Shown in pieces: positions 3,330 to 31,087 of a stretch of 40,093 nt of DNA (positions within the stretch are counted from its first letter, which is position 1; each line of letters opens with the position of its first letter). The position numbers and the translations under genes are program-made. This DNA comes from a bacterium. GTDB taxonomy: Bacteria; SAR324; NAC60-12. Under the pieces are notes generated by a model, which saw only the letters and a program-made list of their open reading frames with translations, was not told where the DNA came from and made no database searches. The DNA is taken from assembly GCA_965233585.1 (NCBI GenBank), contig CBDDTI010000382.1:1-40093 (forward strand). The letters run 5' to 3'.

Positions 3330-4677
3330 TGAACCCTGAGGGAGGAAAGAGACAGCGCGAATAGTTTGGTTCAAAAACTTTCGCTTCATCTTACCACATA
3401 GGCTAATTATCTAATTCATTCCTGTCATCTAAATGATTCAAGTCCATTGAGTGTTCAATAGAGTGAGAGAAAGATCCAGCGTGCCAGTACAAATCTTAGC
3501 AGTACTGACATGGGGCATGGCAGAAAATTAAAGATAAAAAAGTTTTTTGGTACAGTAGATGATGCTGAGAAAAATTCGGACGAAAATATTTTTTTCACTT
3601 CAATGAATTTTGATGTTGTCGCCACCATTTCTCTGTTAGTAAAAAGTTAACACTGAAAACTTCAACATGTTTTCTCCATATTACTGTCTTTTTTTATTAA
3701 ATATGATATTTTTTCTCATTGGGGAAAAAAGTGTTAATAACTTAACAAAGAATTTAAAATTTTTATGGAATTTTTACAGTGACTCCTCTAGAGAGAAGAG
3801 AAGGAAGAAGTGTTTTCTTCTTACAAGAAAGAAGTTTTTGAATTTTCCCACTTTCCAGAGCATGCCTTCACTGGTGGTGCAATCTATGCGTCAAAGGCTG
3901 AACTATTTTCTGACACGCCCCTTAGTGGGGAAATATTCATCAGTTGACCAAGCCAGACCAGTGTCCGGACTGTTAAGTTTTGTACTGGCACAAATGTTTT
4001 GTTATACAATTGTTTAACAAAACAAAATTAAATAATACAAAAGTGTTGCGATACAATTGTTTTATTAATCTTCACTATCCAAAATCTACAGTGTTAAGTA
4101 TAACTCAGAATTCTGAAAAATATGTTGTAACTTCTCCATGATGAAAAATTTTGTGTGAGCTAAGCACATAGCAGAGCAAAAAATATATTAGTTGGAACAA
4201 GTATTTTAGCAAATTAGAGTCAAAACTGAAAAAAATGAATATAGTATTGGAAAGATAATAATTTTACCCTACTTTTGCCCTAGTTTTATTGAAACATTAC
4301 TGAGGGGTTTTACAGAAAATCAAAAATTGGGTTATCAAGCAGTGCATTGGGTTGACAGGTTTTCTCATCATTTTAGATGGGCAAGATGAGGTAGGGCTGA
4401 AAAAATTTTTGGTGTACCCTGGTGGGATGGTGAGCAAGGGGCATAATTGTATCCTCTAATTTTACATGCCCGCAATTTTGGGATTCAATTACAGAATAGG
4501 AGAAAACGGATGACAGAAGCTTGTTTTTAGATGTTTTCGGCCCGAATTCATCTAAATTCATCTAAATGCGTTCTAAATTCATCTAAATTCATCTAGATGC
4601 GTTCTCGTTGCAAGCAAAACGTCAACTGATTCAATCTAAAATCATCTAAATGCACACCGATTTCTGGTGCGTGCACC

Positions 4678-4982
4678 AAAAGTTTGGTGCGTGCATTGCT
4701 GTGTCTAATGCTGGCATGAGAAATTTGGTGCGTGCACCAAAAGTTTGGTGCCGGCATTGCTCCGTCTAATGCCGGCATGAGAAATTTGGTGCGTGCATGA
4801 AAAGTTTGGTGCCTGCATTGCTTCGTCTAATGCTGGCATGAAAAGTTTGACGCGTGCACGAAAAATCTGGTGCCTGCATTGCTTTGTCTAATGCTGGCAT
4901 GAGAAGTTTGGTGCGTGCATCAAAAGTTTGGTGCCTGCATTGCTCTGTCTAATGCAGGCATGAAAAAGTTGGTGCACGCACT
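4678..4982 (+). repeat. Five 61-bp tandem units inside the left TIR
   Basis: Units start at 4678, 4739, 4800, 4861 and 4922; consensus aaaagtttggtgcctgcattgctNNgtctaatgctggcatgaraartttggtgcgtgcaNN. Confidence 0.92.
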
Positions 4983-5028
4983 AAAAATTTCATGCACGCA
5001 TCAAAATTTTACTTGTCTGCATTACTTT

Positions 5029-5088
5029 TTCTGGTGCCGGGATCTCAATTTTGACGCTGGCATGAAATTTTAGATCCCGGCACCAGAA
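5029..5088. other. Perfect 17-bp inverted repeat (hairpin) near the inner end of the left TIR
   Basis: ttctggtgccgggatct (5029-5045) and agatcccggcaccagaa (5072-5088); mirrored at 24616-24675. Confidence 0.85.
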
Positions 5089-5242
5089 TGTCAGCGGTCC
5101 ATAGACGAAGAAACGTGCTCAATAACTTGGGGGTTTTTCTTTTCTTTTTTTGCAATAAACTTCAACGGAATGCTGTTACTAAATAGTTAAGGAAATTGCA
5201 AAAATATGGAAATTTTATTTTTATCTTTTCATCTTCTTTTTC

Positions 5243-7107: not shown

Positions 7108-7137
7108 TTACCATTCTACTAAACGATTTTGCCATTC

Positions 7138-7824
7138 TTACGTGCGTACGTTGTACGCCCTTGTAGGCTGTTCGTCCGGAAAAATATGACTTCTTAATCG
7201 AACCAAATTATTCTGTTGCTGATGAAAATCCAGCAGTAAATAGCCATAAGGTCTTTCACCGGTTGCTGCCGCATATGCATCGTTTAGCCGATGCACGTTA
7301 CCCGGATACACCTGTTTAGCCAGGTGCGAGACGGCACTACGGTCTCTGGGATTGTTGAATAAAATCATGTACTGCGAGTTGATGCTGAGCATTCTGAGTT
7401 CGCTTTTGGCGCTAAACATGTTCTGACACAAAAAAACTGTCAAACAATTATAATGATGCGTTAAAACCGTGAAAAAGTGCTTTAGCACCGTTCCTACTTC
7501 ATCAAGAAAATCGTCAAATACTACAATTTTCGGAAGAGCTCTAGGGAACGTTTCCAGTATATCTTTCATCTCTTCAACCGATTCTGGCATGGATGAAAAT
7601 TTGCAGAACCTTTTCTCACGCGCGTCATCGTTCATCCCTCGCTCCATATCAGCATAGGCTGGTTGAAATTCTTTGTAAAATAGAATCATACATTCCGGAA
7701 CGGGCGAGCACATTACGGCCCTATCTTCAACCAGTTTTTTTAGCCATGACGTTTTTCCGCAAGAAGTGGGACCTACCGCGAGTAAGTTAGATGGAAGCTT
7801 AAAGCGCAAATCAAATCCGTCCAT
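7138..7824 (-). CDS. Genome-packaging ATPase (A32/FtsK-HerA-like)
   Basis: Walker A GPTSCGKT, Walker B IVVFDD, HHYNCLTVFLCQN, PYGYLLLD. Likely start MDGFDLRF at 7824 (ORF open from 7872). Confidence 0.93.
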   Translation of the reverse strand: MDGFDLRFKLPSNLLAVGPTSCGKTSWLKKLVEDRAVMCSPVPECMILFYKEFQPAYADMERGMNDDAREKRFCKFSSMPESVEEMKDILETFPRALPKIVVFDDFLDEVGTVLKHFFTVLTHHYNCLTVFLCQNMFSAKSELRMLSINSQYMILFNNPRDRSAVSHLAKQVYPGNVHRLNDAYAAATGERPYGYLLLDFHQQQNNLVRLRSHIFPDEQPTRAYNVRT

Positions 7825-7887
7825 GTTTTTAATTTTTCTTGACACAAAAAAGAGACAAGATATTACCATCAATTTTTATCAATACGT

Positions 7888-10800
7888 TTATTTGATTTCC
7901 TTACATTCATGTTTACAACATTTTTTTACATGACAACTTCCTAAGGCCAAAGTGCACTTTCCGCAAGAAAGCACATAACGTTTGGTGTCCATGGCAGATA
8001 GAGCAATTTTTCGTTGGTGGGTTGTTGACATTCTGTGATTCTTTGATTTAATATTAACAAGAGGCTTATATACCAATGTTGATTCGTTTAAACATTTTTT
8101 GTAATCCTCAAAGGTCAAGTGATTTTTAATACTAGTTTTTTTAAGGCCCTTACAAATTTTCTTTACGCTGGCTCCTCGGGTTTTCAAATCCTTGACCGTC
8201 ATGCTGTAACATTTTGGCCTTAAGCCGATAAATTCAGTAATTGCGGCCTTTCCTTTTAGCTCGTCTTTGAAGTAAAACAAATGGTTGGCTCTGCTATCGT
8301 CAAACAACTCGTGATCTTTATCGTATTTTGAGAAGTCGAACATGTGTTCCATTCTTTTTAACTTTTTAACTAAATTTTGACATTTTACTTGAAACAGAAA
8401 CGAGTCTGTGTCCGAAAAGCACAACTTTAGATTCTCCGTTCCAAAATAACGTCTAAATTTGTCGTACGATCGATACATGTAGAGTTTGGATAGTTCCAAA
8501 ATCGCAAACCCCACCGCCAACGGTTTCTTCATTTCAATAACGGCCGGTTTTTTCATGACAGCCACAAGGTTTTCGTTTATGACTTTCAAATTCGAAACAT
8601 GCTGACCCATGCAAGTCTTTCTCAGCTTCTTTTCATTGTGGCACAACACGATTTCGATGTAGTTTCGCGCGTTCTCTGAAAAAAAATTAAACATTTTATT
8701 GTGAAAAAAGGGAGCCATTACTTTATTTTACCTATAAATTTGCCAAATGTGGAATTGGCAAACAACTTGAAGAGACGTAATTCAAAATCAGTTTTCGCCT
8801 CCGACCTTAATTTTGTAATTTTTGTGATAAAGTTTTTTAAAAAGTCTTTTTGCTCAAACTTGACCGCTCGTCTGATTTTTGTAAGCTTCAGCCCTCGCCT
8901 CAAATAATACTTTAGATTATCTAACAAGACGACATAATTACGTCGCGGGTAGAATGTGGCAAGAAGCTTTCGCGAACTGTAACGTTTGTTTTTGTAATCA
9001 GCCGGACAGTGCTTCTTCAAAAGTTGTTTGTTAAACGGTGACAGATCATCAAAGTTTATTGTGTCAGTGTAAGGAGCCAAAGGAAATTGATCATCTCTCT
9101 GCAAAATAAATAAAAAAATTTTTCTAGCAGTTGGTGTTTAGCAAAAACAAATTTTTTTACCTTATGATATTTTTTTGGATAGTGCAAATCCACTTCAAAA
9201 GCATAGCCAATCCTGCTTTGCGAAGGCAAATTCAAAATGTCCTTGTCCGTCCATGTTTTTATCACCTTTTTTGGCACCCACTTAAAATTACCCACCGGCA
9301 GCATGCGTGTTTCCATGCTGCCGTAAAGATTGTTAGCTGAAAATGTATCGTAATTTTAATCAATCTTTTTTTCTTTGACGTTTAATAAAAAATATTACCA
9401 TCTACATATAGTAAATGCTCGCCGCTCGCTTTAGGATCGGCCTGACCCGTCGCTTGTCTGGTAGCTATAAAACTCTGCCCTCCTCTAATGCCGCGTGTAA
9501 AAAACTGTTCCATTGCCGGATCGTGAAACAAGTCCAATGAGCCCGGTGGTTTCGACATAAAATCGGCACTAATCTCTTCTTCGTCTTTTCTTTCTTCATT
9601 TTGAAACATTTTCAGCATGATGTCAAATGACAAGCCAGGTATACCTAAATAGTAGATGGGATCCAACTCAAAGTGCTTCATCACCATTTCTCGATACTTT
9701 ACAAAAATCTCAGCCAGCAAAATCACGTCCAGTCCGCAATATAACTTCATGTAGTCGTCCATATTTTTACAATTAAAAAACTTGTACACTTCATAGCCGT
9801 GCTTATGATCTTCGGTTGAGATGTGGGCTTCGCTCAATCTCGAGTAGAAAGCGTCTTTTGGTGGAAATTGACTGTTTTTAATTGACTCATATGATGAAAA
9901 GTATTCATACGGATATACTCCTTTTCTTTTCAATAATTTTAAACCTTTCGCCTTTTGTCGCGTCCACAGCCTCCTGTAAGGCTCAAATTGTTTGAGAATC
10001 GGAAAGGTAAACGTCTCATCCTTGCATAAATCGGTCATGAGCGCATCAAGACTGGATGGCACGTGCTCTAGAGAATCCCTAATTTGAAATTTTCCAATAG
10101 TGATTGTCCTAAACTTTTCTTGGTTACTCGCCATCAGATTAGCCTCTTTGTCCAATTTTTCTACTAGTAGATTTATGTCATATCTTAAAATTAAAAAAAT
10201 TAAAAATGACTTTCCCTCAAGTCAAGGATTATAAATATTAAAAAAGTCTGTACTTACCCTTTGGCGTTGTGAAAGTATATAGGTGTTCTAAATGGGCCCT
10301 GTCGTTGCAGATTGCAAATAGAATGCGCCGCTTGAACAATGTTTCCGGTGACGTGATCATGATCAACCACTTTTTTATATAATCGCGAGCCTGAATCAAA
10401 TTCTTTTTTGCAAATATGACATAGCGTGGCGGCGCGGTACTCTTCCCAATCATGTTTGCTCGCTATAATTTGAGATGTGTTCTTGAACCGTTGCTTTCGC
10501 GCTTCCACTAATTCTTCGAAATAATCCAGCTTTGATAGAAAATTTTCCACAGCGTCTTTTCCACTGTACGTTTCTTGATAAAATACTTCGTTTTCCGAAT
10601 CGACAAAACAAATTGAATAGCCGCAAGCTCGATGTTTACTTAGCTCAGTGCATCCCGACACTTGACATTCGCATGTCACCCACGCTTTTCCGCATGTTTT
10701 ACATGTTTTTGCTTCTTGCTCTGACTTTTCCATAAAACACTCAAAATCAGCAAATCCCACTACAGGTGCTTTAAAAGCATTTCTTTGCTTATCGAAATTC

Positions 10801-11453
10801 AAGACACTGCCCTTTTCCGGATAAATCACCGCTTGTTTATCCATTTGACAGATTTTTTCGTGTAATTTTTGTTTCTTGTGCGAACGAAAATCTCTTAAAC
10901 AGCTGTCACAAAAATAAAACTGACTTCTATGCCGTCTTCCTTTGGTCATAGCAGATTTTCGGTTGTTCAAAAAGCCATTTAAATTAGCAATAGTGAAAAA
11001 ATGGTGCTGATGCTCAAGGTCTTTTACGTTGGAAATGCCATTTACGTCAATGCTGTCTTTATTGGCCGATGAAATTCGACAATCACTTTTAATCATTAGC
11101 AAATTTAGCGTATTTTTGTTCTTATTTTTCTCGCCAGATCTATTGGAGAAAACGTCTAAAACACTCAGTTGATGTTCACCTTCAAAAAGAACTCTTATAC
11201 GTAACGGTAGGTGCTTGTTAATTCGAACAAACTTACTAATCTGGCTAAACTGCAGGGGAAAGGTTAAACCTTGCAAGTTAAATTTACTTTCATACTCCTT
11301 GGGAATTTTTTCGCATCGTCTGATGTTTGCCGTTTCCGGCCAAAGATGTCGTATGACACAATATAGAAAGTTCTTTTCATCGTATTTTCTGTTCCATAAA
11401 ACACTTCGACACTTTAATAAATACTCGGGCACGTTTACAGAGTCGCTGTTCAT
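7888..11453 (-). CDS. pPolB: Protein-primed family B DNA polymerase, 5 exons, 1103 aa after splicing
   Basis: Exons 11453-10258, 10183-9399, 9336-9161, 9098-8732, 8675-7888 total 3312 nt in frame. Motifs: ExoI FADFEC, HNH/EndoVII-like DHDHVTG..AHSICNL, ExoII FHNAKGYD, KGVYPYEY, ExoIII YCGLDV, motif A YVDANNLYG, motif B KLFANSTFGK, motif C SDTDS, PKCY. Confidence 0.95.
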
Positions 11454-11456
11454 TTT

Positions 11457-12092
11457 TTAAAAAATACTGCTACAGTCATAGATTAAAACGCTGCAACTTT
11501 GAAGTTGAGCAAATCGCCAGCCTGAACCTCTAGTTAACAAATCGTCTTCCCTCTCCACCGATCCAACCAAAAGTGACTTTATCCTATCTCGAATCTGCTC
11601 ATCGCTTTGATATTTGTTGACCGCGACGCCTTTTGACCGTAACGTGAAAGAATCGATGTCGACGCTTTTTCCCTGACTTTCTTCATCTAAACCCTGTATC
11701 TCGTAATCTGCCGTGATTGTTATACTTATTCGACAAACCACCCGATGTGTAAATTGACTTTTAACGAGATTCAACACATTTTCGATCGTTTGCTTAGAGT
11801 TGCAAAAATCTTGCAAAGAGCTTTTTAAGTGAGTCAGTTCTTGTTGGAAAATGCAAACTTTGTCGCCAATGGCTCCTTGCCTTTTAGAAAATACCCTTGA
11901 TTCCGCGTGATTCGAATCTACGTGTGACGATAACTCGTTCTTATCACTGTATTTAAGTTCACAAAACGGGCACTTTCTTAACTTGTCGCGACCACTATGA
12001 TTTGCTTGATTTCTGTGTTTTAATTTTAAATGATTGACAAGACGACTCTTTCTGGAAAACGATATGTGACACGTTTCACACTTGTGCGTCAT
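11457..12092 (-). CDS. pPolB N-terminal region (putative terminal protein) with two C2H2 fingers, present as a separate 211-aa ORF
   Basis: CETC..HLKLKH and CPFC..HVDSNH fingers; RGSGW motif typical of the Polinton pPolB N-terminus; ends TAA-AAA-ATG in frame with the polymerase ORF. Confidence 0.75.
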   Translation of the reverse strand: MTHKCETCHISFSRKSRLVNHLKLKHRNQANHSGRDKLRKCPFCELKYSDKNELSSHVDSNHAESRVFSKRQGAIGDKVCIFQQELTHLKSSLQDFCNSKQTIENVLNLVKSQFTHRVVCRISITITADYEIQGLDEESQGKSVDIDSFTLRSKGVAVNKYQSDEQIRDRIKSLLVGSVEREDDLLTRGSGWRFAQLQSCSVLIYDCSSIF

Positions 12093-14088: not shown

Positions 14089-15304
14089 ATGGGTAAACCG
14101 GCTACATCATCTGAAAGCAATGGCAAAGGCAGCAAGACGATCTTGTACAAAAAAAAGGGGAAGTCTGCGCATAAAAAGGTCGCGAAAAAGACACCGTTCG
14201 AAAAAAGCCACGTTGAAAAAACGTCAAAAGTTTACACCAAAGAGCAAAAAAGTAGTAAACTTGCCAAATCCCGTTCGTCATCTGCGAACAAAGGACATAA
14301 GCAATTAGAAGATTCCGACTCAGACATGGAGAAGGATGAGGACATGAGAGACAACGAGAATTCAAGCGATGACGAGTCTGAAGAATCCGGCTCAGAGAAC
14401 ATGCAAGACGGCTCTGATAACGATGATAACGATGTTGAGTCTGATGCTGCCCAAGATGATAACGAGGATGACGATGATGACGAAGATGATGACGATGCTC
14501 CGACTGATATTGAAGAACCGGAGATGGAGGATCAAAGAAAGCCGTTTTGCGCGAAAAAAAGACCAAGGTCCGATTCAGGCAAAAAGAAATTACCCGATTC
14601 AAAGAGGAAAAATTATGTCGAGCCGGAGCCGGTTTCGTCCAAGGTGGATGGGATTAATTTGACAAGGAAAAAGCAAGAGGAGTTGTTTCGACCCTGCAAA
14701 TGGGATCTTAACGAGCGCGTAAAAACCGCGGAGGTAAACTTTTCCAAGTGGCTTGAAAGCCACAGCCATCGCGAACAATATTTTATTGGAGACGACGGGG
14801 TGAGTAAAACAGTTTAGAATCAGCTCAGCGTATTTTTAATTTAAAAAACTTTTCTGCGCTGTTTTGCTCAACAGTACATCTACCCTAATCCAGCCACCAT
14901 GAAAAAGTTTATTGAGGCTTTTAAAAACAAGGAGGTGTCATCGCGATCGGTGAGCTTGCCTTTTGCCCCAATGAGCAAAGTGATTGCATCCAACCCTAGG
15001 ATGGTAATTGGAGTTAGCGGCGTTAGGCATATCCAGCGTGCTGCGGGCCTTAGCGTGTGGCCGGTATTTTACGTCTCTAAAGAGCAGGTAAGGCGAAATA
15101 AAAATGTAAATAGAAAAAAATTGATCGGAAAAATGCGTAAAAAAATCTTTTTTCCCGCAGTATAACGACAACAACAAAAGCCACAGCACCAAGATAATTA
15201 GGATGAATTTTCCTCTGCACAAGTTGGATGAATTTACCGAGGGTATGGTGGAGCTGTGTCAAGGTCTGGATTTTCCCATCAATGCCAAACTCGGCGGCAA
15301 GTGA
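14089..15304 (+). CDS. 3-exon gene (355 aa): basic then acidic N-terminus, C-terminal domain possibly PC4/whirly-like ssDNA-binding
   Basis: Exons 14089-14799, 14875-15087, 15161-15304; phase-0 introns gtgagt..caacag (14800-14874) and gtaagg..cccgcag (15088-15160) join three open frames. The fold call is an inference. Confidence 0.75.
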
Positions 15305-15427
15305 AGATGCGTGTGTGCAACCGCGGCAACAGCCGCGGCAACGGCGGCGACTGCAGCTTTGCTGCAGAACAGAAATCAGATTTGCGGCTTTTTATTAACT
15401 AAAACATTATAGGCAATTCTGTATATT

Positions 15428-15913
15428 CTAATAAAGCTTGACTTGCAAACAATTAACTAAATGTTTGACGCGTTTTTCATTTTCGCGTAAATTAACGGGA
15501 TTAAAAAAAGTGCAAAAGTGCCGCGGATTCGCGTTTGCGTATGCATTGACAAACATGCAGAATGCGGCAGCATACCACCCGCAAAACAATGAATCGAAAG
15601 CTTGAATCGATCGGTCCAAGACATGTCTTATTCTGCCGCAATTTTCCCATTTTTTCAAAAAATGGATGAGGTGGTGATTATAGGCGGGCACGGGTAGTGC
15701 ATAGCTGTCGAAATAATACAAATAGTTTTGCTTATTAATAAAAAAGGCGATGAAATGACTGCCGGGATGGCTTGAAACCGAAAGATTGACGATGGCGCAA
15801 CAGCTAGTGTTCCACAAGTTTGAGGGTATCGTGTCGACTGCAAAGGTGCCGATGAAATTCTTGCAAAGTGGGGATAAAAACCGATCTAGAAATACGTTGC
15901 TCAAACCGGTCAT
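15428..15913 (-). CDS. Adenain-like cysteine maturation protease
   Basis: Catalytic H (GSHFIAF), D (YFDSY), Q and C (IQAFDSLFCGWY). Confidence 0.93.
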   Translation of the reverse strand: MTGLSNVFLDRFLSPLCKNFIGTFAVDTIPSNLWNTSCCAIVNLSVSSHPGSHFIAFFINKQNYLYYFDSYALPVPAYNHHLIHFLKKWENCGRIRHVLDRSIQAFDSLFCGWYAAAFCMFVNAYANANPRHFCTFFNPVNLRENEKRVKHLVNCLQVKLY

Positions 15914-17247
15914 TATCGCTCTTCGGCCCTAACAACTTGGCCGTTCTCCTCTATTTTAATTCCGGAATTAAAAATGCTGTAGGCTAGCAGGTAGATGGGG
16001 TGAGGCTTGGCTGTTTTAAAGCCTAATTCCAAGTCCAACTTGCCTTTTTCGTCGGGGTGAATGTGAAAACTGTTGCAGCGATCGGGGGTCAAATCGGCAG
16101 TTAGAAAACATCTTCCTCTCTTAAAAACCGCGGGCGAAATGTCGCAAGAACTATTTGAAATGCCGAAACCCGTGCTGTCGTACATGTGTCTGTACAGGTC
16201 CATGTAGTTATCATCATCAAAATCCGGCTGAAAAGCTTTTGGGAAGACGCATTGTCCGTTTTTAATAAGATTGAAATAATTAAGATCAAAGTGTTGAAAG
16301 TCGAACGGGTTGAATTTGCTATCGTGCGTCAAGGCTTGGTTGTGAATTAGGGTGAAAATAACTTGTTTGGGCAGTATTTGTGAGGCAATATTGGTAACGG
16401 TGTACGATGTGACGCCGGCTGGAATCACAAAAACCTTCAACTGACTCAGCTTAAAGGGTATATAGCAGGGCTGTTGAGACATTTTCATCCTAAAATGCTT
16501 TCTCTGCTGCTCGACCGGCAAAACTTTTCTCATTTTCAACTTTAAATCCTTTAAAACGATTTTAAAAGATTTGTCATCTTCGGCGTGAAGAATACCAAAT
16601 GTCGGACTGTTTCTAATAAGCTTAATCTTGATGTCGACATTCGGTGGCATATACTTATCCGTATACATAATATCCGCCCCCAATCGAGAGCAGAAATAAA
16701 CTTTTTTGCCGTGAAGTATAAGATTTCGACGGTGTATTAAACGCTGATTTATACCGGGCTCGCAAGCTCCAATATCGTTTTCTTTTTCTTCAAAATAACC
16801 TTCGGCTCTTAGCTGACTCTGTTTGGCCTCTCTATCAAACGACAACTCGGTCTGGATAAAGTTTTTGAAAGGGTAGGAATTTGCCGTGCTCAAGTCGCAG
16901 ACTTGAGTACCGTTAATGTAGATTTCAACCGCGCTAAATAGATTGCTCGCGAAATTATTGGCCAAAAAGACTCGATCGTCGGGTCCGACATTTTCATCCT
17001 TTGCTGTCTTGACAACGAAATGCCCTATTAATCTAGTCTGATCCAGAATGATGGAACACTCTTCGTCTCGCGGGATGATGAATTCGATCGGTCCGGTGTT
17101 TGAAACGCTGGAAACGCTGTTGTAGACCACATCATTGCCTTTTTCAAGGCTTATATCGACCCCGAGCGGCGCGTGCAGATCAAGAGCTTGTTCTGTCAAA
17201 TCGTCCTGCTCGAACCCTAGACCTCCGATGCCGCCCTTTTCAGTCAT
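15913..17247 (-). CDS. Major capsid protein (double jelly-roll), paralog B, 444 aa
   Basis: Polinton MCP-type motifs PIEFxI, LFSAVEIYING, SYPFKNFI, KYMPPNVDIKIKLIR, LPKQVIF, NPFDFQHFDL, DLTPD. Confidence 0.88.
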   Translation of the reverse strand: MTEKGGIGGLGFEQDDLTEQALDLHAPLGVDISLEKGNDVVYNSVSSVSNTGPIEFIIPRDEECSIILDQTRLIGHFVVKTAKDENVGPDDRVFLANNFASNLFSAVEIYINGTQVCDLSTANSYPFKNFIQTELSFDREAKQSQLRAEGYFEEKENDIGACEPGINQRLIHRRNLILHGKKVYFCSRLGADIMYTDKYMPPNVDIKIKLIRNSPTFGILHAEDDKSFKIVLKDLKLKMRKVLPVEQQRKHFRMKMSQQPCYIPFKLSQLKVFVIPAGVTSYTVTNIASQILPKQVIFTLIHNQALTHDSKFNPFDFQHFDLNYFNLIKNGQCVFPKAFQPDFDDDNYMDLYRHMYDSTGFGISNSSCDISPAVFKRGRCFLTADLTPDRCNSFHIHPDEKGKLDLELGFKTAKPHPIYLLAYSIFNSGIKIEENGQVVRAEER

Positions 17248-17316: not shown

Positions 17317-18657
17317 TTAATATTTTATTTTGGTAACCTGAAGGTTGCTGTCGATGGAAATGGCAGCATTATAAATAGCGTAAGAAATCAGGGTTAGGGG
17401 GGTTCTGGTGGGGGTGTTAAAAGTCAAGTCTAGTTCTAAATTTCCGGGCACTCCGACGTGATTGTGAAAGGATAGGCATTTATCCGGAGTCAAGTCGAAC
17501 GCGAGAAACATCTGACCCCCTGTAAAAGCTTGGGGTGAAATACAATTTCTGCCGCCGACGTTGCTTTGAAAATGGTCGTACAATTCCATATAATCGCCTG
17601 TAAGTATCTTGCATTCTATAGGTCTAGGCATGAGAAGTCTTCCATTGTTTTTTAAAATGACGGATCCTAAATCGGCGTGTTTAAATTTAAAGGGAAATTG
17701 ATCGCTCGGTCCCTTGGCAAAAAGGTCGCTTCGAAGCATGCAGAAAATAATTTGTTGCGGCAACATCTCGCTATTGTTGATGTGATTTGCAGAGAAACTA
17801 AGGGAACCAGACGGGATCAGATAATGCTTCATCTGCGTGTCTTTAAAAGGCAGAAAAAATGGTCGACCTTTTAGCAGTTCGGCGTTTAGCCTGTTTCGCA
17901 CACGCTCGCACGGTAACACTTTTCTCATGCGAAGTTTTAATTCCTTTAAACGAATGCGATAGACTTTGTTCGGATTATCTTGAAGCAGCCCGAAACACGG
18001 GTTGAACCTGCGTAATACAACAGTGATTTCCACATTCGGAGGTAAATATTTGTCGGTGTAAAAAATATCTGCGGGCAAAGTTGAGCTAAAATAAACTTTT
18101 TTGTCGTTTATTATTTTCGCGCGATTCTCCGCGATGCATTGGCACATTTTACCGGTCGTGGTAATATTGTCAAAGCATTTGTCGTGGTGCGTTCGGCAAA
18201 AGCCTTCGGACCGTCCCACATTTGTTAATACATTATTGTTATAGGACAGGAGAAAGTCAATGTGGTGTTTGTACGAATAAGAAAGAGGGGCACTCAAATC
18301 ACATATTTGAGTTCCGTTAAGGTGGACTTCAATTTGCGAGAATAATGCGGCGCAATAATGGTTAGTAATTGTTGGCGTGTCAGTGTCTGTTACACCCTCG
18401 CCGCTGTCGGTCTTTACCACAAAGTAACCCTCTAGCCTTGTCTGATTTAAAACAAAAGCGCATTCGGGGTCGGAAGGAATTGAAAACGTAACATCTTCTA
18501 AATCTTCGACGGGAGTCACGCTATTATATAGCACAGTACGACCTGATATTAAATCCGTGTCTTCGAGGGGGGTCGCATGCGCATTCAAACTATCACCCTG
18601 CAATTCATTGAAATCCACATTTAAACCGCCGACACCGCCATTAATCAACGATGACAT
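17317..18657 (-). CDS. Major capsid protein (double jelly-roll), paralog A, 446 aa
   Basis: Colinear with paralog B: QTRLEGYFVVKT, LFSQIEVHLNGTQICDLS, YTDKYLPPNV, MRKVLP, LPQQIIF, FDLTPDKCLSFHNH. Confidence 0.88.
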   Translation of the reverse strand: MSSLINGGVGGLNVDFNELQGDSLNAHATPLEDTDLISGRTVLYNSVTPVEDLEDVTFSIPSDPECAFVLNQTRLEGYFVVKTDSGEGVTDTDTPTITNHYCAALFSQIEVHLNGTQICDLSAPLSYSYKHHIDFLLSYNNNVLTNVGRSEGFCRTHHDKCFDNITTTGKMCQCIAENRAKIINDKKVYFSSTLPADIFYTDKYLPPNVEITVVLRRFNPCFGLLQDNPNKVYRIRLKELKLRMRKVLPCERVRNRLNAELLKGRPFFLPFKDTQMKHYLIPSGSLSFSANHINNSEMLPQQIIFCMLRSDLFAKGPSDQFPFKFKHADLGSVILKNNGRLLMPRPIECKILTGDYMELYDHFQSNVGGRNCISPQAFTGGQMFLAFDLTPDKCLSFHNHVGVPGNLELDLTFNTPTRTPLTLISYAIYNAAISIDSNLQVTKIKY

Positions 18658-19211
18658 TTTTAGACAACACGGAGCACGTCACTGTCACAAATATAAAGCT
18701 TAGCTGCACAATTATTCTTACGGATGAGGGGCCGTTATCCTTAAATAAAGATGTGACACAAAAAGTTTTTAGTAATTTTACGGTAGTGAGGAAACAATAC
18801 GTCTACACCATTTTCAAGACCCGCGGAAACAACAAATCATATCATGTCAATATTACCAAAGTGCCGTCGCGAGCGGATATAAAAATATCGTTAAGTCTGC
18901 TGACGGACATTATCAGCAATCGTTTCTTTGTGCAAACATGGGAAATAAACAATTTAACTTGTTCCTTTCGTGCGGGCTTTGAGATACCGCTGCCGGACGT
19001 TTTTGATAAACTTCGAAAGGAGAGCTACGTGAAAAAAGTACGCTTCAATCCCGAACGTTTCCCGGGCATGTTTGTGACTTTTGAAGCCAACACGGTTTTA
19101 ATATTTTCCACAGGCAAGATGGTAATCATCGGGGCCAAGTCCGAAGATGCGGTCAAACATAGTTTGGACTTTATTATAGATTTTTTGAAACAATATAAAA
19201 GCGATCGATAG
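18651..19211 (+). CDS. TBP: TATA-binding-protein-like factor (186 aa), intronless
   Basis: Clear C-terminal TBP repeat INNLTCSF..FEIPL..FNPERFPGMFVTF..TVLIFSTGKMVIIGAKSEDAV; divergent N-terminal repeat VTNIKLSC..NFTVVR..YTIF..VNITK. Confidence 0.9.
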   Translation: MTFLDNTEHVTVTNIKLSCTIILTDEGPLSLNKDVTQKVFSNFTVVRKQYVYTIFKTRGNNKSYHVNITKVPSRADIKISLSLLTDIISNRFFVQTWEINNLTCSFRAGFEIPLPDVFDKLRKESYVKKVRFNPERFPGMFVTFEANTVLIFSTGKMVIIGAKSEDAVKHSLDFIIDFLKQYKSDR

Positions 19212-19229
19212 TTGATTTGCGTTTCAGTT
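19194..19229 (+). promoter_or_regulatory. TATA plus initiator core promoter for the TFIIB-like gene
   Basis: TATAAAAG at 19194 and TCAGTT at 19224-19229 (A 32 nt downstream of the first T); ATG at 19255. Confidence 0.65.
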
Positions 19230-19254
19230 TTGCAGCGCGTGCGGAGAAATAAAC

Positions 19255-19977
19255 ATGCCTCGCTTTCATAATTTCAACAGGACTTGTTCTCATTACAATA
19301 TTGTGGATGATTTTTCAAACGGGTGTGAAGTATGTACAGATTGCGGGCTCGTGATGCATGATCGGCTATATGCCTCGTATGACTATCGGCTCGAATCGAT
19401 TAAAACGGAGAAAATGAGCGAGGATGTGACTTGCGACAAAAACAATTTTACTGATGAGACAATGCAAAGGGTATGCTATAAGTGCAATATCGAATGCGCG
19501 GATTTAAAACGCGTCATCGCCAAAAAATGGGACGCTAGCGGGAAAAGAGGGAAAAGAGGTGTTTGTTTAGAAAGTTTAGCGGTAATGTGCATCTACTCCG
19601 CGCTTATAGAGTCGGGGGTGCCGCGACCGATGAAAGATTTATGTGCCATAACCGGCGTCAAGCAGGACAAAGTGTGGCAATATCTTAAAAACGACGACTC
19701 TTTCTACAGCCCAAATTTAATGTGCGAATATTTTCTTCACTCTTTAAATCTAAGCTACAAGGAGTTGAAGGAAATTAGAGAGAAAGTAAAGCAACACGAA
19801 AAAAAGTTTGTTTTTTCGCCAAAAACACTAATCGCGGCATGCGCGCACGTCTTTTTAAGAGAACAACGGAGTAGGGTTGATCAGGAAAAGCCGAAAAGCT
19901 TATCACGTTTAGCCGAGCAATTAGGCGTTAGTCCGATGGCCTTAAGCAGGTGCGTCAAAAAAATTGAAAATTGTTAA
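19255..19977 (+). CDS. TFIIB: TFIIB-like transcription initiation factor (240 aa), intronless
   Basis: Zn ribbon CSH..IVDDFSNGCEVCTDCGLV; cyclin repeat 1 ESLAVMCIYSAL..GVPRPMKDLCAITGV; repeat 2 SPKTLIAACAHV..SLSRLAEQLGVSPMALSRCVKKI. Confidence 0.88.
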   Translation: MPRFHNFNRTCSHYNIVDDFSNGCEVCTDCGLVMHDRLYASYDYRLESIKTEKMSEDVTCDKNNFTDETMQRVCYKCNIECADLKRVIAKKWDASGKRGKRGVCLESLAVMCIYSALIESGVPRPMKDLCAITGVKQDKVWQYLKNDDSFYSPNLMCEYFLHSLNLSYKELKEIREKVKQHEKKFVFSPKTLIAACAHVFLREQRSRVDQEKPKSLSRLAEQLGVSPMALSRCVKKIENC

Positions 19978-19980
19978 AGT

Positions 19981-20412
19981 ATGCGATACCACCGCGGTCC
20001 GTCTGTGCAAGCTGGGGCGGGATTAGGTTCAATTTTTAGCAGTCTTTTCCGGTCGTTGGTTCCGGTGGCGAAGGGCGCCGCAAAGACAATCGGTAAAATT
20101 GCGAGAAGCGAGGGTGTCAGATCCGCGGGACGATATTTGAAAAAAGAGGCGGGACGAGCGGCCATTGACACCGCACTGGAAGCCTTGGACGGCAAAGCAG
20201 TTGGAGCCGCTGCGAAAAAGAGATTAAAATCCGCGACTAGAAACATCTTACTGGCTGGTAAGGCGAGTAGGCCTGCACAGGCGTCCAAGAGACCGGTCAA
20301 GAGAAAAAATAGCACGCATGCGGTAGGAAGCGGTAAGAGAAGAAAAACAAAACAAAAACCGCTGTTTTATGTTGAGGACGACAACGACGACGACGACGAG
20401 GATGATTACTAA
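19981..20412 (+). CDS. Basic core/DNA-condensing-type virion protein (143 aa)
   Basis: QAGAGLGSIFSSLFRSLVP N-terminal motif typical of Polinton core proteins; Ala/Lys/Arg-rich body; acidic tail. Confidence 0.75.
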   Translation: MRYHRGPSVQAGAGLGSIFSSLFRSLVPVAKGAAKTIGKIARSEGVRSAGRYLKKEAGRAAIDTALEALDGKAVGAAAKKRLKSATRNILLAGKASRPAQASKRPVKRKNSTHAVGSGKRRKTKQKPLFYVEDDNDDDDEDDY

Positions 20413-21481
20413 ACGCGAATTTTTAAAAGCTTACACTTCGCCCGGCTCGCCTTTTGCTTTTTCATCGCCGAACCGCGTTTTTAATCATTTTAACGGGACC
20501 ATACCCATAAATAAAATAAAGAAATGGCTGCAGGCGTCAGACACCTATACTCTGCACCGACAACCTAGGGCTCCAAAACCTAGGAACCCGACCTATGTTT
20601 ATTACAAAAGATATCAATTCCAAATAGACTTGGTTGAAATTGGAAAAATGGCAAGCGCGAATGACAATTATCGTTACTTGCTGACAGCGATCGACATTTT
20701 TTCGAGATATGCCTTTGTTGAACCCATAAAAAACAAGACAGCTTTGGTTTTTTTACAAGGATTCAAAACCATTGTCAATAAGGCTGGCCAGCCGCCTCGA
20801 AAAATTCTAGCTGATAGAGGGTTAGAGATCAAAAATAAATTTTTTAAAGACTACTGTCGACGTAATGGCATTACTCTTTTACACAGCGACAACTTTGTGC
20901 ACGCGCCGTTTGTGGAAAGATTTAACAGATCTCTAAAAAGTCTAATGTTTAAATATATGACATCTAGGGGTACGGATCGATTTATCCACGTGCTTCAATC
21001 TTTAGTAAAGACGTATAACTCGCGCGTACATAGAATGATCGGTATGAGTCCGGCTGAAGCGGAAAAAGCAAAAAACGCGCCCAAAGTCCGAATGAAACAA
21101 GAAGAGGCTTATGCGAAAATAAAGAGGCGACCGCCTAAATTTAAGAAAGGCCAGACGGTCAGAATAAGTAACTACAGAGCTCAATTTGACAGAGGTTACA
21201 ATAAGCAATTTACTGAAGAAATTTACAAGATCAAACGGGTGTTTACGCGATTACCCATACCTACATACGAACTGGAAACTCTGGACGGTGACGAGACGGT
21301 AGAGGGAAATTTTTATGCTAATGAGCTGACTCTGGCCAAGCCGCCGGAATTATTTCACATTGAAAAAATTGTTAAAAGGAAGAAAGATAAAAGAACCGGG
21401 CAGAAGTTGGTGTTGGTCAAGTGGAAAGGCTATAAAAACCTTAGCTGGATTGCGGAAGATAACGTTATTAATCAGGCGTAA
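20402..21481 (+). CDS. Retroviral-like (rve) integrase with C-terminal chromodomain
   Basis: YTLHR, D-D-E triad (FQIDL, ILADRG, VERFNR), YNSRVHRMIGMSP, GNFYANEL, chromo-like FHIEKIV..LVKWKGY. First ATG at 20402. Confidence 0.95.
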   Translation: MITKREFLKAYTSPGSPFAFSSPNRVFNHFNGTIPINKIKKWLQASDTYTLHRQPRAPKPRNPTYVYYKRYQFQIDLVEIGKMASANDNYRYLLTAIDIFSRYAFVEPIKNKTALVFLQGFKTIVNKAGQPPRKILADRGLEIKNKFFKDYCRRNGITLLHSDNFVHAPFVERFNRSLKSLMFKYMTSRGTDRFIHVLQSLVKTYNSRVHRMIGMSPAEAEKAKNAPKVRMKQEEAYAKIKRRPPKFKKGQTVRISNYRAQFDRGYNKQFTEEIYKIKRVFTRLPIPTYELETLDGDETVEGNFYANELTLAKPPELFHIEKIVKRKKDKRTGQKLVLVKWKGYKNLSWIAEDNVINQA

Positions 21482-21486
21482 CAAGT

Positions 21487-23079
21487 ATGAAAGGAGGACA
21501 TCTTATATATTGCATTTCAAACGCCAGCACTGATTGTTACGTAAACACGCTAACGCGTTTTAACAATTTTTTACCGAAAAATTTAGAATTAAACAAAAGA
21601 AGAGATTGGGAAGTTGGGGTTGTAGCTTTTGGTCTGCATTTAAACGTGAAACAAGATTTTGTTTTTGACGTGGTGCAGGTTAAATCCAACATTGTGTCTA
21701 CAAGCTCAAACGAGAATTCTCACATCTTATGTGTGGCCGACTTGCCTTCAAGCAAAAAACGGAAATATTTCTACCATACTTTAAGCAACATACGATATTA
21801 TCCTATTCAAAACACTTCAATAAAATCAGTGGGCATTGAGTTTTTAGACGCGTCCGACAAACTTCTGAAACTAAAATCGGGTCAGCCGAGTCTAGTTTTA
21901 CTTCATTTGCGAAAAACAAAACGAGCGATGTCATATTTGACAAAGCACATTCGCGTCGACTCAAAAATGGGCGACAACATAAAACCTGCGCAGAAAAACA
22001 ACAATTTCGAGGTACATTTGAGCCATCCCATTTATTTGAACGAAGGAGCTAAAATAGCCTTAGCCGACATCTCCTTTCCAAATCGTGTTAACAGCGTTCC
22101 GTCAAGCGTTTTTGATAAGAAAATTAAAGTAAGTACAGACCCGTTCAAGCAAGAAATCGAGGTCAAACTTGATCAGCAGAAAACAATTGCTTATTTATTA
22201 AATTGCTTAAACGACGGAAGAGACAGCGTAGTACGTAATTTTGTTGAATTTGGGCAAACGGAGAAAACAAAAGAATCGGTCGATATCTTTTTTCGAGTAA
22301 TTTACACCGGACCGTCGACGTACGATGCCGAATTTAAATCACCCGAGGTAAAAGTGCTGATACCGCCCGAATTTAAAAACATTTTGGGAATCAAAGAAGA
22401 ATATATTGTTATGGGACCGGAGAAAAAAGAATTTATATCGCAACAGCCAATGCAAAACCCTGATCCAACAGAAACATTTCCACTGGTGAAAATCAGGGTA
22501 ATGATTGAAACAATGCAATTTTGCTTTTGCATTGAGAAGAGGTTTATCAAAACAACGGATGAATTAATCGAGGCCATGTCTAATGGTATGAGCAAAGATT
22601 TACAAAGTCTCATTCAAATTTCCGCGCATAAAGACCGTTTTAAAGTAAAACGGGTCGGCAATCAATTCAATCGCTCCTTGGTAGTAAGGATAAGAGTGCC
22701 GCATGAAATAAGATTATTGCTAGGAATAAGTCAAGATGATGACATTGTTTTGGCGGATGAAAGTAAACAATTTATAAGTGACGAACGTCTAGATCCGCAC
22801 TATCTATATCCGGGAGTGATGATCTGCTATGCCAATTTCGTCAATCACTCGGTAATTGGAGACGAGTTTTACCCTGTATTAAAAGTTATACCAATTAATA
22901 GAGCCGAGGAACAAGACAATTATGTGACGACGCATTTTGACAATTTGGAATACATAAAGTGTAATACAAGTCGACTGGATTTGTTGCATTTTCAGTTAAA
23001 AAGACTTGACGGAGAATTGATTAATTTTGAAACAAATGAAAAAATCATGATGAATCTAGCCATACAAAACCCTAAATAA
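21487..23079 (+). CDS. Minor capsid protein (penton), 530 aa, apparently two tandem single-jelly-roll domains
   Basis: Domain 1: SNAS..NTLTRFNNFLP..L..WEVGV ... SNIV..YYPI..IKSVGIEFLD..LHLRK. Domain 2 from Met148: DS..NNFEVHLSHPIYL..IALADISFP ... NFVNHSVIGD..LKVIP..LEYIKC..LHFQLKRLDG. Confidence 0.8.
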   Translation: MKGGHLIYCISNASTDCYVNTLTRFNNFLPKNLELNKRRDWEVGVVAFGLHLNVKQDFVFDVVQVKSNIVSTSSNENSHILCVADLPSSKKRKYFYHTLSNIRYYPIQNTSIKSVGIEFLDASDKLLKLKSGQPSLVLLHLRKTKRAMSYLTKHIRVDSKMGDNIKPAQKNNNFEVHLSHPIYLNEGAKIALADISFPNRVNSVPSSVFDKKIKVSTDPFKQEIEVKLDQQKTIAYLLNCLNDGRDSVVRNFVEFGQTEKTKESVDIFFRVIYTGPSTYDAEFKSPEVKVLIPPEFKNILGIKEEYIVMGPEKKEFISQQPMQNPDPTETFPLVKIRVMIETMQFCFCIEKRFIKTTDELIEAMSNGMSKDLQSLIQISAHKDRFKVKRVGNQFNRSLVVRIRVPHEIRLLLGISQDDDIVLADESKQFISDERLDPHYLYPGVMICYANFVNHSVIGDEFYPVLKVIPINRAEEQDNYVTTHFDNLEYIKCNTSRLDLLHFQLKRLDGELINFETNEKIMMNLAIQNPK

Positions 23080-24076: not shown

Positions 24077-24599
24077 CCTTATTACAAAGGAACTTTCTAG
24101 AAAACCCTAGAAAAAATTGCGGACAGGTTGAAAAATGTATCTTGTCAAAAATTAAAAAATTCTTTTACAAAATACCTTCAATCCTAATTGTTTTTAAATG
24201 ATAGGAATGTTCTAGAAATGGGAAGAATTTATAAAAAGAACAAAAAAGGAAACATCTGCTTTGCGCAAAAATATTATGTAGAAAACACCAGAAAAAATCG
24301 CGGTCAGTTCAAAGGTGATTTTTGGAAAAAATTAAAATTGCATGGTAAAAAATACCAAGGAACCATACAACTTTTTCGAGAAATCAAATTTATATAAAAC
24401 CTTTTTGTGCTAAAAACAAAAAACACAATTGATTAAATTATTGATAAAAATCACATTAAATTATTGATAAAAATCGCTCGTTTACTGATACCATTACAGC
24501 AAGAAAATTTACACAGAATGAAGAAGAACATTGTGACATTGCAACACCAGTTATGGTAAAAAAGAAAAAAGCTCTGCTTCTTTTCTCCAATTTACTCAA

Positions 24600-25140
24600 C
24601 TATGGACCACTGACATTCTGGTGCCGGGATCTAAAATTTCACGCCAGCATCAAAATTGAGATCCCGGCACCAGAAAAAGTAATGCAGACAAGTAAAATTT
24701 TGATGCGTGCATGAAATTTTTAGTGCGTGCACCAACTTTTTCATGCCTGCATTAGACAGAGCAATGCAGGCACCAAACTTTTCATGCACGCACCAAACTT
24801 TTCATGCCAGCATTAGACGGAGCAATGCAGGCACCAAACTTTTCATGCACGCACCAAACTTTTCATGCCAGCATTAGACGAAGCAATGCAGGCACCAAAC
24901 TTTTCGTGCACGCACCAAATTTTTCATGCCAGCATTAGACACAGCCATGCAGGCACCAAACTTTTGGTGCACGCACCAGAAATCGGTGTGCATTTAGATG
25001 CATTTAGATTGATTCAGTTGACGTTTTGCTTGCAACGAGAACGCATCTAGATGAATTTAGATGAATTTAGAACGCATTTAGATGAATTTAGATGAATTCG
25101 GGCCGAAAACATCTAAAAACAAGCTTCTGTCATCCGTTTT
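24600..25140 (-). repeat. Right terminal inverted repeat (541 bp; four 61-bp units at 24722-24965)
   Basis: Reverse complement of 4503-5104, one 61-bp unit shorter. Confidence 0.95.
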
Positions 25141-28737
<3,597 letters not shown>

Positions 28738-30118: not shown

Positions 30119-31087
30119 CATTTCAGATTACGAAGAAGTGTGAATCATAAGGGTCAAATTGAACCAGTCAAACCCAGTTGTTGTTGGATGGAGAGGCAAG
30201 CAAATGGGTAGGCTGAACAATGGCAGCCTCTTTATAATTGCTGGAATAAGGAAAGACATTTTTGTTTGGGATGTTGACAAGGAGTTGCCTCTCAGGTCAT
30301 TTGTAGCTCACTCTGCCGGGATTCTTCGGATGCAAGCTTTGAACCAAAAAGAGGCCAATGTTTTCATCACCTCAAGCATTGATAAAACCATCAAGGTCTG
30401 GGACATGAATGAGCTTCTTCAGCTTGTTCATCCTGTGGACAAAATGGGTATTTCCATCAAGAAGCTGATACATTGCCCACAATTAAACAAGGTAATAGCT
30501 GTTACAAGATGTGGATTGGGTTTATGGTCACTGGAGACTGGAAATCTAGAGAACATTGTGGCTGACAACCCCATGGGAGGGTTCATCACGGACGTTGTGC
30601 TGACCTCTGATGGGAAATACCTTTTAACAGCAGAATCTGGATATATCAGGGTGTGGAATGTCAAACACAAGGTTGTCCTACAAAAAATTCAACAGGCCTC
30701 TGTTGTTCAGCTACTGGAAATTTATGTTGGGAAATCTGATGTCCATGTGGCAGCCATTTCCTTGGATAAAGCCACAAAGGCTGACTATTGCATTTTGAAA
30801 CTGGTTTGCAGAAATGTAGTGGATGGAAGCACAACATATCAATTTGAGTTGCCAGTTTCTCAAACTGTCAGGTTCAATGTAAGCTTTAATGATGGGAACT
30901 GCATGGTAACTATTGAAAACAAAACATTCATTCTTATTTACTAACTTGTTCCTAAAGAATCAAAACAAAAGAGAGACTGTGGCTCATGCAATATAAAAAG
31001 TTGATATTTAATCGAAATAGAAGTTTCTAAAGTTGTTCAAATAATTATAATGCGACAAACCAGTCTCATAGGTTGTTTAATCTAAGA

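Follow-up and report, generated by a model that had tools for sequence, protein, structure and literature searches.

A TBP-like and TFIIB-like gene pair in Polinton/Maverick elements: a candidate route to host RNA polymerase II

Small DNA viruses and transposons of the nucleus are assumed to depend on the basal transcription factors of their hosts, and virus-encoded homologues of TATA-binding protein (TBP) as well as of transcription factor IIB (TFIIB) count as a hallmark of giant viruses that come with a polymerase of their own. Here we describe an integrated element of approximately 20.6 kb, bounded by terminal inverted repeats (TIRs), which holds a pair of TBP-like and TFIIB-like genes. It lies in a stretch of 40,093 nucleotides (the window, by which we mean the whole stretch; contig CBDDTI010000382.1 of GenBank assembly GCA_965233585.1, positions 1 to 40,093 of the forward strand) that is filed under a bacterium of the SAR324 lineage. 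An earlier note on this DNA, made from its letters alone, had called the element a Polinton-like virus. The TIR-bounded architecture with a DNA polymerase B (PolB) and an integrase stands, and the class is to be corrected: because it combines a protein-primed PolB with an rve integrase, the element is, by gene content, a Polinton/Maverick proper and not a Polinton-like virus in the narrow sense.

Among described systems, the Nucleocytoviricota resemble this element in encoding a homologue of each basal factor, and theirs act as a promoter-recognition pair; the poxvirus factor VITF-3, for example, is described as an atypical TBP/TFIIB-like heterodimer (PMC12917281). The Nucleocytoviricota factors work, mostly in cytoplasmic factories, for a multisubunit RNA polymerase that the virus itself encodes, whereas the element is of about 20 kb, appears to be nuclear and has no polymerase. 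Its likeness to giant-virus TBPs rests on structural neighbours, the trees presented below holding no giant-virus sequences: a search of BFVD gave the TBP-like model named neighbours that are giant-virus proteins apart from one Ranid herpesvirus 2 open reading frame (ORF) and one Inoviridae row, with no Polinton or adintovirus among them (many rows are nameless).

In the beta- and gammaherpesviruses, a TBP mimic, exemplified by ORF24 of Kaposi's sarcoma-associated herpesvirus, belongs to the late-gene pre-initiation complex (PMC12529657, PMC13345323, PMC4893493). Similarly to the element, these are nuclear DNA viruses without an RNA polymerase, in which ORF24, in the passages that describe it, reads promoters and brings in host RNA polymerase II (Pol II), and by analogy the pair most likely works like this late-gene system. 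In the same passages ORF24 is, however, a structural mimic rather than a sequence homologue and acts inside a multi-protein viral complex without a TFIIB homologue, whereas both proteins of the element are sequence homologues of the cellular factors; the likeness is a functional analogy and not membership. Host-encoded modules offer a further parallel, since TRF2/TBPL1, TBPL2 with TFIIA, and TBP with Brf2 each join a TBP-type factor to its own partner in the service of a separate promoter class, but they are much closer to TBP, and the element family falls outside the cellular TBPs sampled.

A gene named "TBP" has been noted before in a midsize eukaryotic linear dsDNA (MELD) virus with an adintovirus-like PolB, in the legend to Figure 5 of Starrett et al. 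(2021; PMC8502044). This is a TBP homologue in a midsize virus of the PolB/integrase type, named in that legend only; neither version of that paper mentions TFIIB in its main text, and the text gives no pairing, clade-wide conservation or mechanism. Because of this legend the TBP half of the system that the earlier note had put forward as a candidate for an undescribed one is not wholly new. No TFIIB of a Polinton was found in full-text literature searches, with subscription-only papers, Repbase notes and supplements outside their scope. The other literature matches concern giant viruses or mirusvirus-like elements (10.1101/2022.05.25.493380, PMC10675990, 10.1101/2024.10.09.617401), and in two further papers (PMC12220804, PMC13037468) the relevant terms stand in the reference lists only.

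The first gene of the pair (coordinates of all features are given in Table 1) encodes what is, to judge from its sequence, a divergent member of the TBP family. Against the Pfam TBP model (PF00352) the protein scores 61 bits (cut-off 22.9; E 9.8e-17) over residues 98-182 only, which is the C-terminal repeat, and the TBP-like proteins of the more distant relatives described below score 66-71 bits. The AlphaFold model (pLDDT 91.7, pTM 0.81) is a complete two-repeat saddle with strand and helix elements in both halves, in which helix 1 of repeat 1 is missing and the N-terminal repeat is divergent. When this model was compared with the Protein Data Bank (PDB) by Foldseek, all rows listed down to rank 44 were TBP chains or fusions (TMq 0.57-0.71, about 190 columns). 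Similarly, a profile of 22 members of the family matched 35 distinct PDB sequences at E<=0.01, all of them TBPs or TBP fusions, with archaeal TBPs best (1mp9, E 2.3e-23) and eukaryotic TBPs at about 1e-15. One of these 35 is deposited as "ECU04_1440 protein".

In canonical TBPs, pairs of phenylalanines kink the DNA and a central asparagine lies on the DNA-binding face. The window protein retains these positions in both repeats: its residues N14, F43, F55, T69, N101, F137 and F152 align with the corresponding residues (N, F, F, T, N, F and F) of five canonical TBPs; across 73 family members, N67, F137, F152 and G155 are invariant, and N14, F55, T69 and N101 are conserved in at least 90%. Two regions depart from the canonical sequence. 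The last strand of repeat 1 reads H-V-N-I-T-K in the window versus K-x-V-x-T-G in canonical TBPs, and of the 150 best profile-search matches 118 carry H-x-N-[VIA]-[TS] where the canonical strand motif would stand. The C-terminal stirrup, which as E-P-E-L-F is the TFIIB-binding part of canonical TBP, reads N-P-E-R-F in the window versus E-P-E-[LQ]-F in the aligned canonical TBPs, with a family consensus of N-x-E-x-F-P-G; it is because the canonical stirrup is not kept that we call the protein divergent.

The second gene follows on the same strand after a spacer of 43 nt and encodes a TFIIB-like protein with a zinc ribbon at residues ~11-33, a short, variable and disordered linker at 36-62, two cyclin-like repeats and a C-terminal helix-turn-helix (HTH), the last with Pfam matches at residues 210-239. 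A profile of 22 family members finds human TFIIB in the PDB (E 4.8e-9) over the ribbon and the first cyclin repeat. Among the same 22 members, Pfam models at E<=0.01 recognize the ribbon (Zn_Ribbon_TF) in 20, the TFIIB repeat in four and an HTH in 12-14. The ribbon positions C11, H13, C27 and C30 are conserved in at least 90% of the family, and the ribbon pattern lies within the first 60 residues in 37 of 45 members. In the structural model, the ribbon strands are followed by a stretch of low confidence (36-62) and by ten helices (68-239), and down to rank 35 the Foldseek listing consists of TFIIB, TFB and Brf chains throughout (best E 1.8e-6), with cyclins after them. One cluster, with 30 member sequences from 4 contigs, is identical to this protein. 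The domain scores, the confident model of the first protein, the family profile of the second and structural searches that return both folds bear out the identities that the earlier note had given to the two ORFs.

Both ORFs are intact in the window copy and align end to end, uninterrupted, with full-length homologues, and they are therefore intronless; the description of an adjacent, co-oriented and intronless pair was thus accurate. The pair lies ~13.5 kb from the left TIR and ~4.6 kb from the right TIR, with two capsid-like paralogues on the minus strand on one side and a basic protein and the integrase (19981-21481) on the other, which agrees with the earlier placement between the capsid and the core-protein/integrase genes, well inside the TIRs. 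The earlier note had also denied the element an RNA polymerase, and none turned up in a Pfam scan for RNA polymerase domains that covered 18 of the 19 ORFs with 100 aa or more between the TIRs, all but a 103-aa antisense ORF (22302-22613).

We scanned a prokaryote genome collection with a sub-alignment of the broad TBP-like family. The scan returned 33 loci, 27 of which are archaeal chromosomal TBPs. The six non-archaeal loci (L001-L006) are AT-rich contigs (29-32% GC) filed in bacterial metagenome-assembled genomes (MAGs) of Flavobacterium, Oxalobacteraceae and Sulfurisoma, and are evidently mis-binned eukaryotic or viral DNA; their TBP-like proteins share 31-36% identity with that of the window. 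A local hidden Markov model of the window's TFIIB-like family finds a TFIIB-like ORF directly downstream of the TBP-like ORF in all six of these loci and in none of the 27 archaeal ones, and in L001-L006 the two ORFs overlap by 34-43 nt. Moreover, the three long contigs (L002, L004 and L005) share the gene order of the window: PolB (-), protease (-), capsid-like (-), TBP-like, TFIIB-like, basic protein, integrase with chromodomain, and large protein (+). An ATPase gene lies nearby in L004 and L005, where the contig reaches that region.

Orthology between the window and these relatives is supported for the TBP-like protein (34% identity, E 1e-26) as well as for the TFIIB-like protein (23% identity, E 9e-18). 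The TFIIB-like proteins of L004 and L005 both pass the Pfam TFIIB-repeat cut-off of 23.6 bits, one with 29.7 and one with 23.8, and hhalign joins those of the relatives to the window family with 99.8% probability over 213 columns. Their profile finds human TFIIB in the PDB at E 7.6e-19 (residues 109-287, both cyclin repeats) and yeast TFIIB at 5e-9, with archaeal TFB (5e-7) and Brf1 (3e-4) at lower ranks. Additionally, the pairwise identities of the two proteins rise and fall in parallel across the loci, as expected for co-inheritance. On these comparisons, co-inheritance of the two genes extends to elements that share no more than 24-36% identity, and the TBP-TFIIB pair is a conserved module of a diverse Polinton clade, not an oddity of this copy. 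The related Polintons with the pair in synteny that the earlier note had proposed to look for therefore exist, with the pair in every one of the diverged loci and the wider gene order in every long contig.

The family extends well beyond these loci. A word-indexed search found 34 TBP-like relatives, at 98 to 32% identity, and 26 TFIIB-like relatives; a profile search for the TFIIB-like protein found 54, 46 of them at E<=2.2e-25 and then, after a gap, generic TFIIB-like proteins. An exhaustive profile search for the TBP-like protein through 1.84 billion cluster representatives gave 3584 matches at E<=1e-3, 901 at 1e-10 and 12 at 1e-30, and the majority of the 150 best are 165-190 aa in length and aligned from end to end as a single stretch. 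In eight cases a TBP-like match and a TFIIB-like match agree in the size of their longest contig, which is a proxy only for co-location. Two fused or decayed copies confirm the adjacency of TBP and TFIIB in further contigs: one (P0030) is a deletion copy with the first TBP repeat fused to the TFIIB cyclin region, and in the other (P0043) the TFIIB-like ORF reads into the basic protein. The close-family TBP-like alignment found no relative in the prokaryote genome collection, and tblastn of one family member against phage records gave no match.

Two metagenome proteins of 241-244 aa (P0080 and P0081) carry a ribbon, C-S-H...C-T-D-C-G-L-V, very like that of the window and pass both Pfam TFIIB models; judging by this likeness, they may be the TFIIB partners in additional branches of this element family. 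The Atlas contains a cluster of 185-aa TFIIB-repeat proteins with Preplasmiviricota among its few classified members (phylum known for 2). Genes of this type probably sit unnoticed in public records.

Two phylogenies set the TBP-like family apart from cellular TBPs. The first, a FastTree analysis of 158 rows, comprised the window protein, 20 of the 34 word-search matches, 131 representatives of 150-240 aa and six canonical TBPs, after exclusion of two duplicated canonical sequences and nine representatives outside that length range. In this tree, the 152 short TBP-like proteins split from the six canonical TBPs with a support of 100, and the clade of the window (21 rows, support 98) is nested inside the short TBP-like family. 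The second, an IQ-TREE analysis of 58 rows under a mixture model, separates 43 short TBP-like proteins from 13 archaeal and two eukaryotic TBPs with an SH-aLRT of 100; its sample holds only these two eukaryotic TBPs and no giant-virus TBPs.

Evidence on the polymerase involved comes from introns and from the order of homology. PolB has at least two GT-AG introns in the window: one at ~10180-10256 (GTAAGT...TTTTAAG), where the L005 protein is continuous, and a second after Y-[IV]-D, at a position common to the window, L004 and L005 (the PolB gene lies at 2119-6313 in L004 and at 1735-5976 in L005). These introns, together with the chromodomain integrase, suggest nuclear expression of the Pol II type. 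Since homology runs in the order TFIIB > TFB > Brf1 and the element's PolB has spliceosomal introns, we favour host Pol II over Pol III.

A TATA box followed at canonical spacing by an initiator-like motif lies before the TFIIB-like gene, starting ~32 nt before the A of CAGT and ending 26 nt before the ATG. The same composite precedes the TBP-like gene of L004 and the PolB genes of L002 and L004. As a promoter of the TFIIB-like gene, the window site is suggestive only. In the window, the start codons of the TBP-like gene (+) and of capsid-like paralogue 2 (-) overlap by 7 nt (18651-18657) and the genes diverge, so that there is no intergenic promoter space between them. The corresponding spacer in L001-L005 is ~11-51 nt long, and in L002-L004 it holds a TATA box and a CAGTT initiator-like motif facing the TBP-like gene. 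Capsid genes have no recognizable host-type promoter in the few cases inspected.

We propose that the pair probably steers host Pol II to the element's own genes and thereby provides a private initiation route. In this scheme, host Pol II would express the two genes, the TBP-like protein would bind AT-rich core promoter sites on the element, the TFIIB-like protein would dock on the altered stirrup and, through its HTH, on the flanking DNA, and its ribbon would recruit host Pol II, which would thus be redirected to promoters of the element. The outcome would be initiation partly insulated from host TFIID and TFIIB, and the rewired stirrup and the missing reader (see below) would make the module private and mechanistically simplified. 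The genes served would perhaps be those without host-type promoters, such as the capsid genes.

Several observations weigh against this proposal. The window TFIIB-like protein taken alone stays under the Pfam cut-offs, with 21.9 bits of the 29 needed for Zn_Ribbon_TF and 13.8 of the 23.6 needed for the TFIIB repeat, its model is of moderate confidence (pLDDT 71), and whole-chain TM-scores are 0.31-0.35 with an rmsd of up to 20 A, low values which we attribute to a different domain orientation in the moderate-confidence model. In canonical TFIIB the B-reader motif E-W-R-x-F follows the ribbon. The pattern [ED]W[RK]xF occurs in none of the 45 members of the TFIIB-like family, and three of eight more distant matches have E-W-N-F, which this pattern does not count. 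Because the B-reader is missing and the linker is short, variable and predicted to be disordered, start-site selection and DNA opening in the canonical TFIIB manner may not be possible for this protein. The stirrup of the TBP-like protein is unlike E-P-E-L, and it is co-inheritance that suggests pairing with the element's own TFIIB-like protein.

On the DNA side, the TATA-plus-initiator composite occurs three times in the window versus 0.87 expected, and seven of 100 shuffles reach three. TATAWAAR is found 27 times where 10.9 sites are expected; the element, which makes up 51% of the window, has 17 of them, so the excess is window-wide, and no element-specific promoter motif was found. Inspection by eye, with no formal motif discovery, likewise revealed no shared non-canonical motif upstream of nine orthologous gene sets (window and up to six loci). 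Moreover, several genes abut or overlap and leave no room for separate promoters. Finally, PolB of the window has an in-frame stop at 11457-11459, which cuts off its C2H2 zinc-finger part at a point where the L005 gene reads on without a break, and there is an apparent frame change near 9060; this copy of the element may be inactive or non-autonomous.

Giant viruses are believed to have arisen from Polinton-like elements. An extension of the proposal, which we put forward tentatively and regard as possible rather than likely, is that a widespread Polinton/Maverick clade carries a minimal private initiation system that is orthogonal to that of the host yet uses host Pol II, and that may be a precursor or sister of the giant-virus TBP/TFIIB factors pre-dating the viral RNA polymerase. 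As part of this extension, a short TBP with a rewired TFIIB-binding stirrup would co-evolve with a reader-less TFIIB.

The altered stirrup and the missing B-reader also bear on the readings that compete with Pol II recruitment. An unlikely one is that the pair acts against the host or for persistence, as a decoy that titrates initiation factors or as a repressor that quiets the integrated copy. Without a B-reader and canonical linker the complex could bind a promoter and not open it, and the altered stirrup could block host TFIIB. The zinc ribbon, which is the polymerase-docking part of TFIIB, is however conserved in 20 of 22 members and would be superfluous in a pure blocker, and the pair belongs to the conserved core beside the structural genes in all long relatives.

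The missing B-reader likewise means that the part specific to Pol II is not conserved, and Brf1 and Brf2 chains are also among the fold matches, as would be expected if the pair were a TBP-Brf or TBP-Rrn7-like module recruiting host Pol III (or Pol I) to a small non-coding gene or to the termini. This too is unlikely in view of the sequence ranking, in which TFIIB precedes TFB and Brf1, and of the length of the protein, which at 240 aa is without a Brf-type C-terminal extension. Additionally, no Rfam family and no tRNA or tRNA-like gene was found in the window, and the genes of the element are protein-coding, with PolB spliced.

Functions outside transcription, in which the two folds would serve as DNA or protein adaptors (ORC6-like) in replication, end recognition or packaging, are very unlikely: sequence homology is specifically to TFIIB, zinc ribbon included, and the TATA-kinking positions are retained in the TBP-like protein. 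Such functions would fit a weak match of the L005 protein to ORC6_2nd (E 0.0053, below the cut-off) and the AT-rich tandem repeats of the TIRs, which could be bound. We give still less credence, only a slight chance, to the idea that the pair works, in the manner of a virophage, for the RNA polymerase that a co-infecting giant virus brings. The named viral neighbours of the TBP-like model are mostly Nucleocytoviricota proteins, as this idea would have it, but the chromodomain integrase, chromosomal integration and spliceosomal introns point to nuclear expression, and the element has TATA-plus-initiator sites of the host type (the late-promoter motif of giant viruses was not searched for). A recent, neutrally decaying host retrocopy confined to this copy, the alternative that the earlier note had raised and that intronless ORFs might suggest, is contradicted by the trees, in both of which the TBP-like family is a clade apart from cellular TBPs, by family size (46 TFIIB-like relatives at E<=2.2e-25 and at least 131 TBP-like cluster representatives) and by the synteny of the pair in 6/6 diverged loci, with full-length ORFs persisting down to 24-36% identity.

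If the proposal of a private Pol II route is true, Polintons of 20 kb without a polymerase hold a natural two-protein module that retargets host Pol II, and the minimal needs of a private pre-initiation complex become directly testable. The module would also offer a candidate link for explaining how the giant-virus transcription apparatus arose, and it would suggest how Polintons evade host control or set its timing. Unrecognized TBP and TFIIB genes of Polintons can, moreover, mislead annotation and binning, because TFIIB serves as a giant-virus marker in metagenome tools (10.1101/2024.10.09.617401) and because six contigs carrying the pair sit in bacterial MAGs, three of them with the full Polinton gene order.

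Table 1. Features of the element in the window (positions are those of the window; TIR, terminal inverted repeat).
Feature	Position	Strand	Size	Basis or remark
Left TIR	~4503..5113			61-bp tandem array at 4665-4990 (5.3 copies)
Packaging ATPase	7138..7869	-	243 aa	ATPase_2 weak match, 18 bits
Protein-primed PolB, several pieces, N-terminal C2H2 domain	7888..12092	-		DNA_pol_B_2 (PF03175) 30.4 bits vs cut-off 25.8
Probable adenain-like cysteine protease	15428..15913	-	161 aa	Position equals L005 8158-8616
Capsid-like paralogue 1	15913..17247	-	444 aa	N-terminus and length visibly similar to paralogue 2
Capsid-like paralogue 2	17317..18657	-	446 aa	29% identity over full length to L005 orthologue, E 3e-46
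TBP-like gene	18651..19211	+	186 aa	Pfam, AlphaFold model, Foldseek, family alignment
Candidate core promoter of TFIIB-like gene	19194..19228	+		TATAAAAG box and TCAGT initiator-like motif
TFIIB-like gene	19255..19977	+	240 aa	Family profile, Pfam ribbon in family, model, Foldseek
Small basic protein with acidic tail	19981..20412	+	143 aa	31% identity to L004 11100-11471, E 6e-14
Integrase, rve core and C-terminal chromodomain	20369..21481	+		Pfam
Conserved large protein	21487..23079	+	530 aa	No Pfam family; homologous to L004 12682-14499, E 1e-14; syntenic in relatives
Right TIR	~24591..25140			61-bp tandem array at 24729-24978 (4.1 copies)

The TIR arms measure 388-438 nt, are 93-94% complementary and lie ~19.5-19.8 kb apart. 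By eye, no target-site duplication is evident at the TIR ends, the positions of the termini being approximate. The 61-bp arrays of both TIRs show a sub-period of 20 bp, and shorter repeats of 10 and 31 bp occur near the outer ends. The left arm of the element holds the zinc-finger proteins, the PolB pieces and the ATPase. The PolB pieces are colinear with L005 PolB (E 1e-38), and the L005 counterpart by position of the ATPase (15231-15911) matches Pox_A32 at 31.5 bits vs a cut-off of 22.8. For the integrase, rve scores 41.4 bits (cut-off 32.6) and Chromo 24.4 bits (cut-off 25.1), and the L005 orthologue is above both cut-offs.

The capsid-like gene, present as two tandem paralogues in the window, is single-copy (439-445 aa) in L002, L004 and L005. 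A lead toward a double-jelly-roll-like fold comes from the Atlas clusters nearest to paralogue 2, which carry PF21738 in 15% of members, and from the L004 orthologue, which matches PF21738 at E 2.9e-4, below the cut-off; single-sequence searches of the PDB with the capsid-like and 530-aa proteins gave matches at chance level only. Similarly, the protease-like ORF of the window has no Pfam match at E<=0.01, and its positional equivalent in L005 matches Peptidase_C5 weakly (E 0.0083, below the cut-off). The name "core-like" for the small basic protein is given by position only.

A 504-aa Lys-rich protein at 5243-6757 (-) has a C2H2-like finger and a repeated D-E-N-E-P-L-S-K-L-R-R unit, and a C2H2 protein is also found at the corresponding end of L004 and L005. 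An acidic, Asp/Glu/Ser-rich protein of 242 aa is encoded at 14089-14817 (+), with TATAAAAG 89 nt before its ATG, and L005 has an acidic protein at the matching location (6369-7136). One end of L004 carries a Thr-rich, mucin-like ORF. The host DNA flanking the element in the window contains a carboxylesterase fragment and fragments of an NWD2-type WD40 beta-propeller (26359-26778, 30204-30944 and 31916-32602, +).

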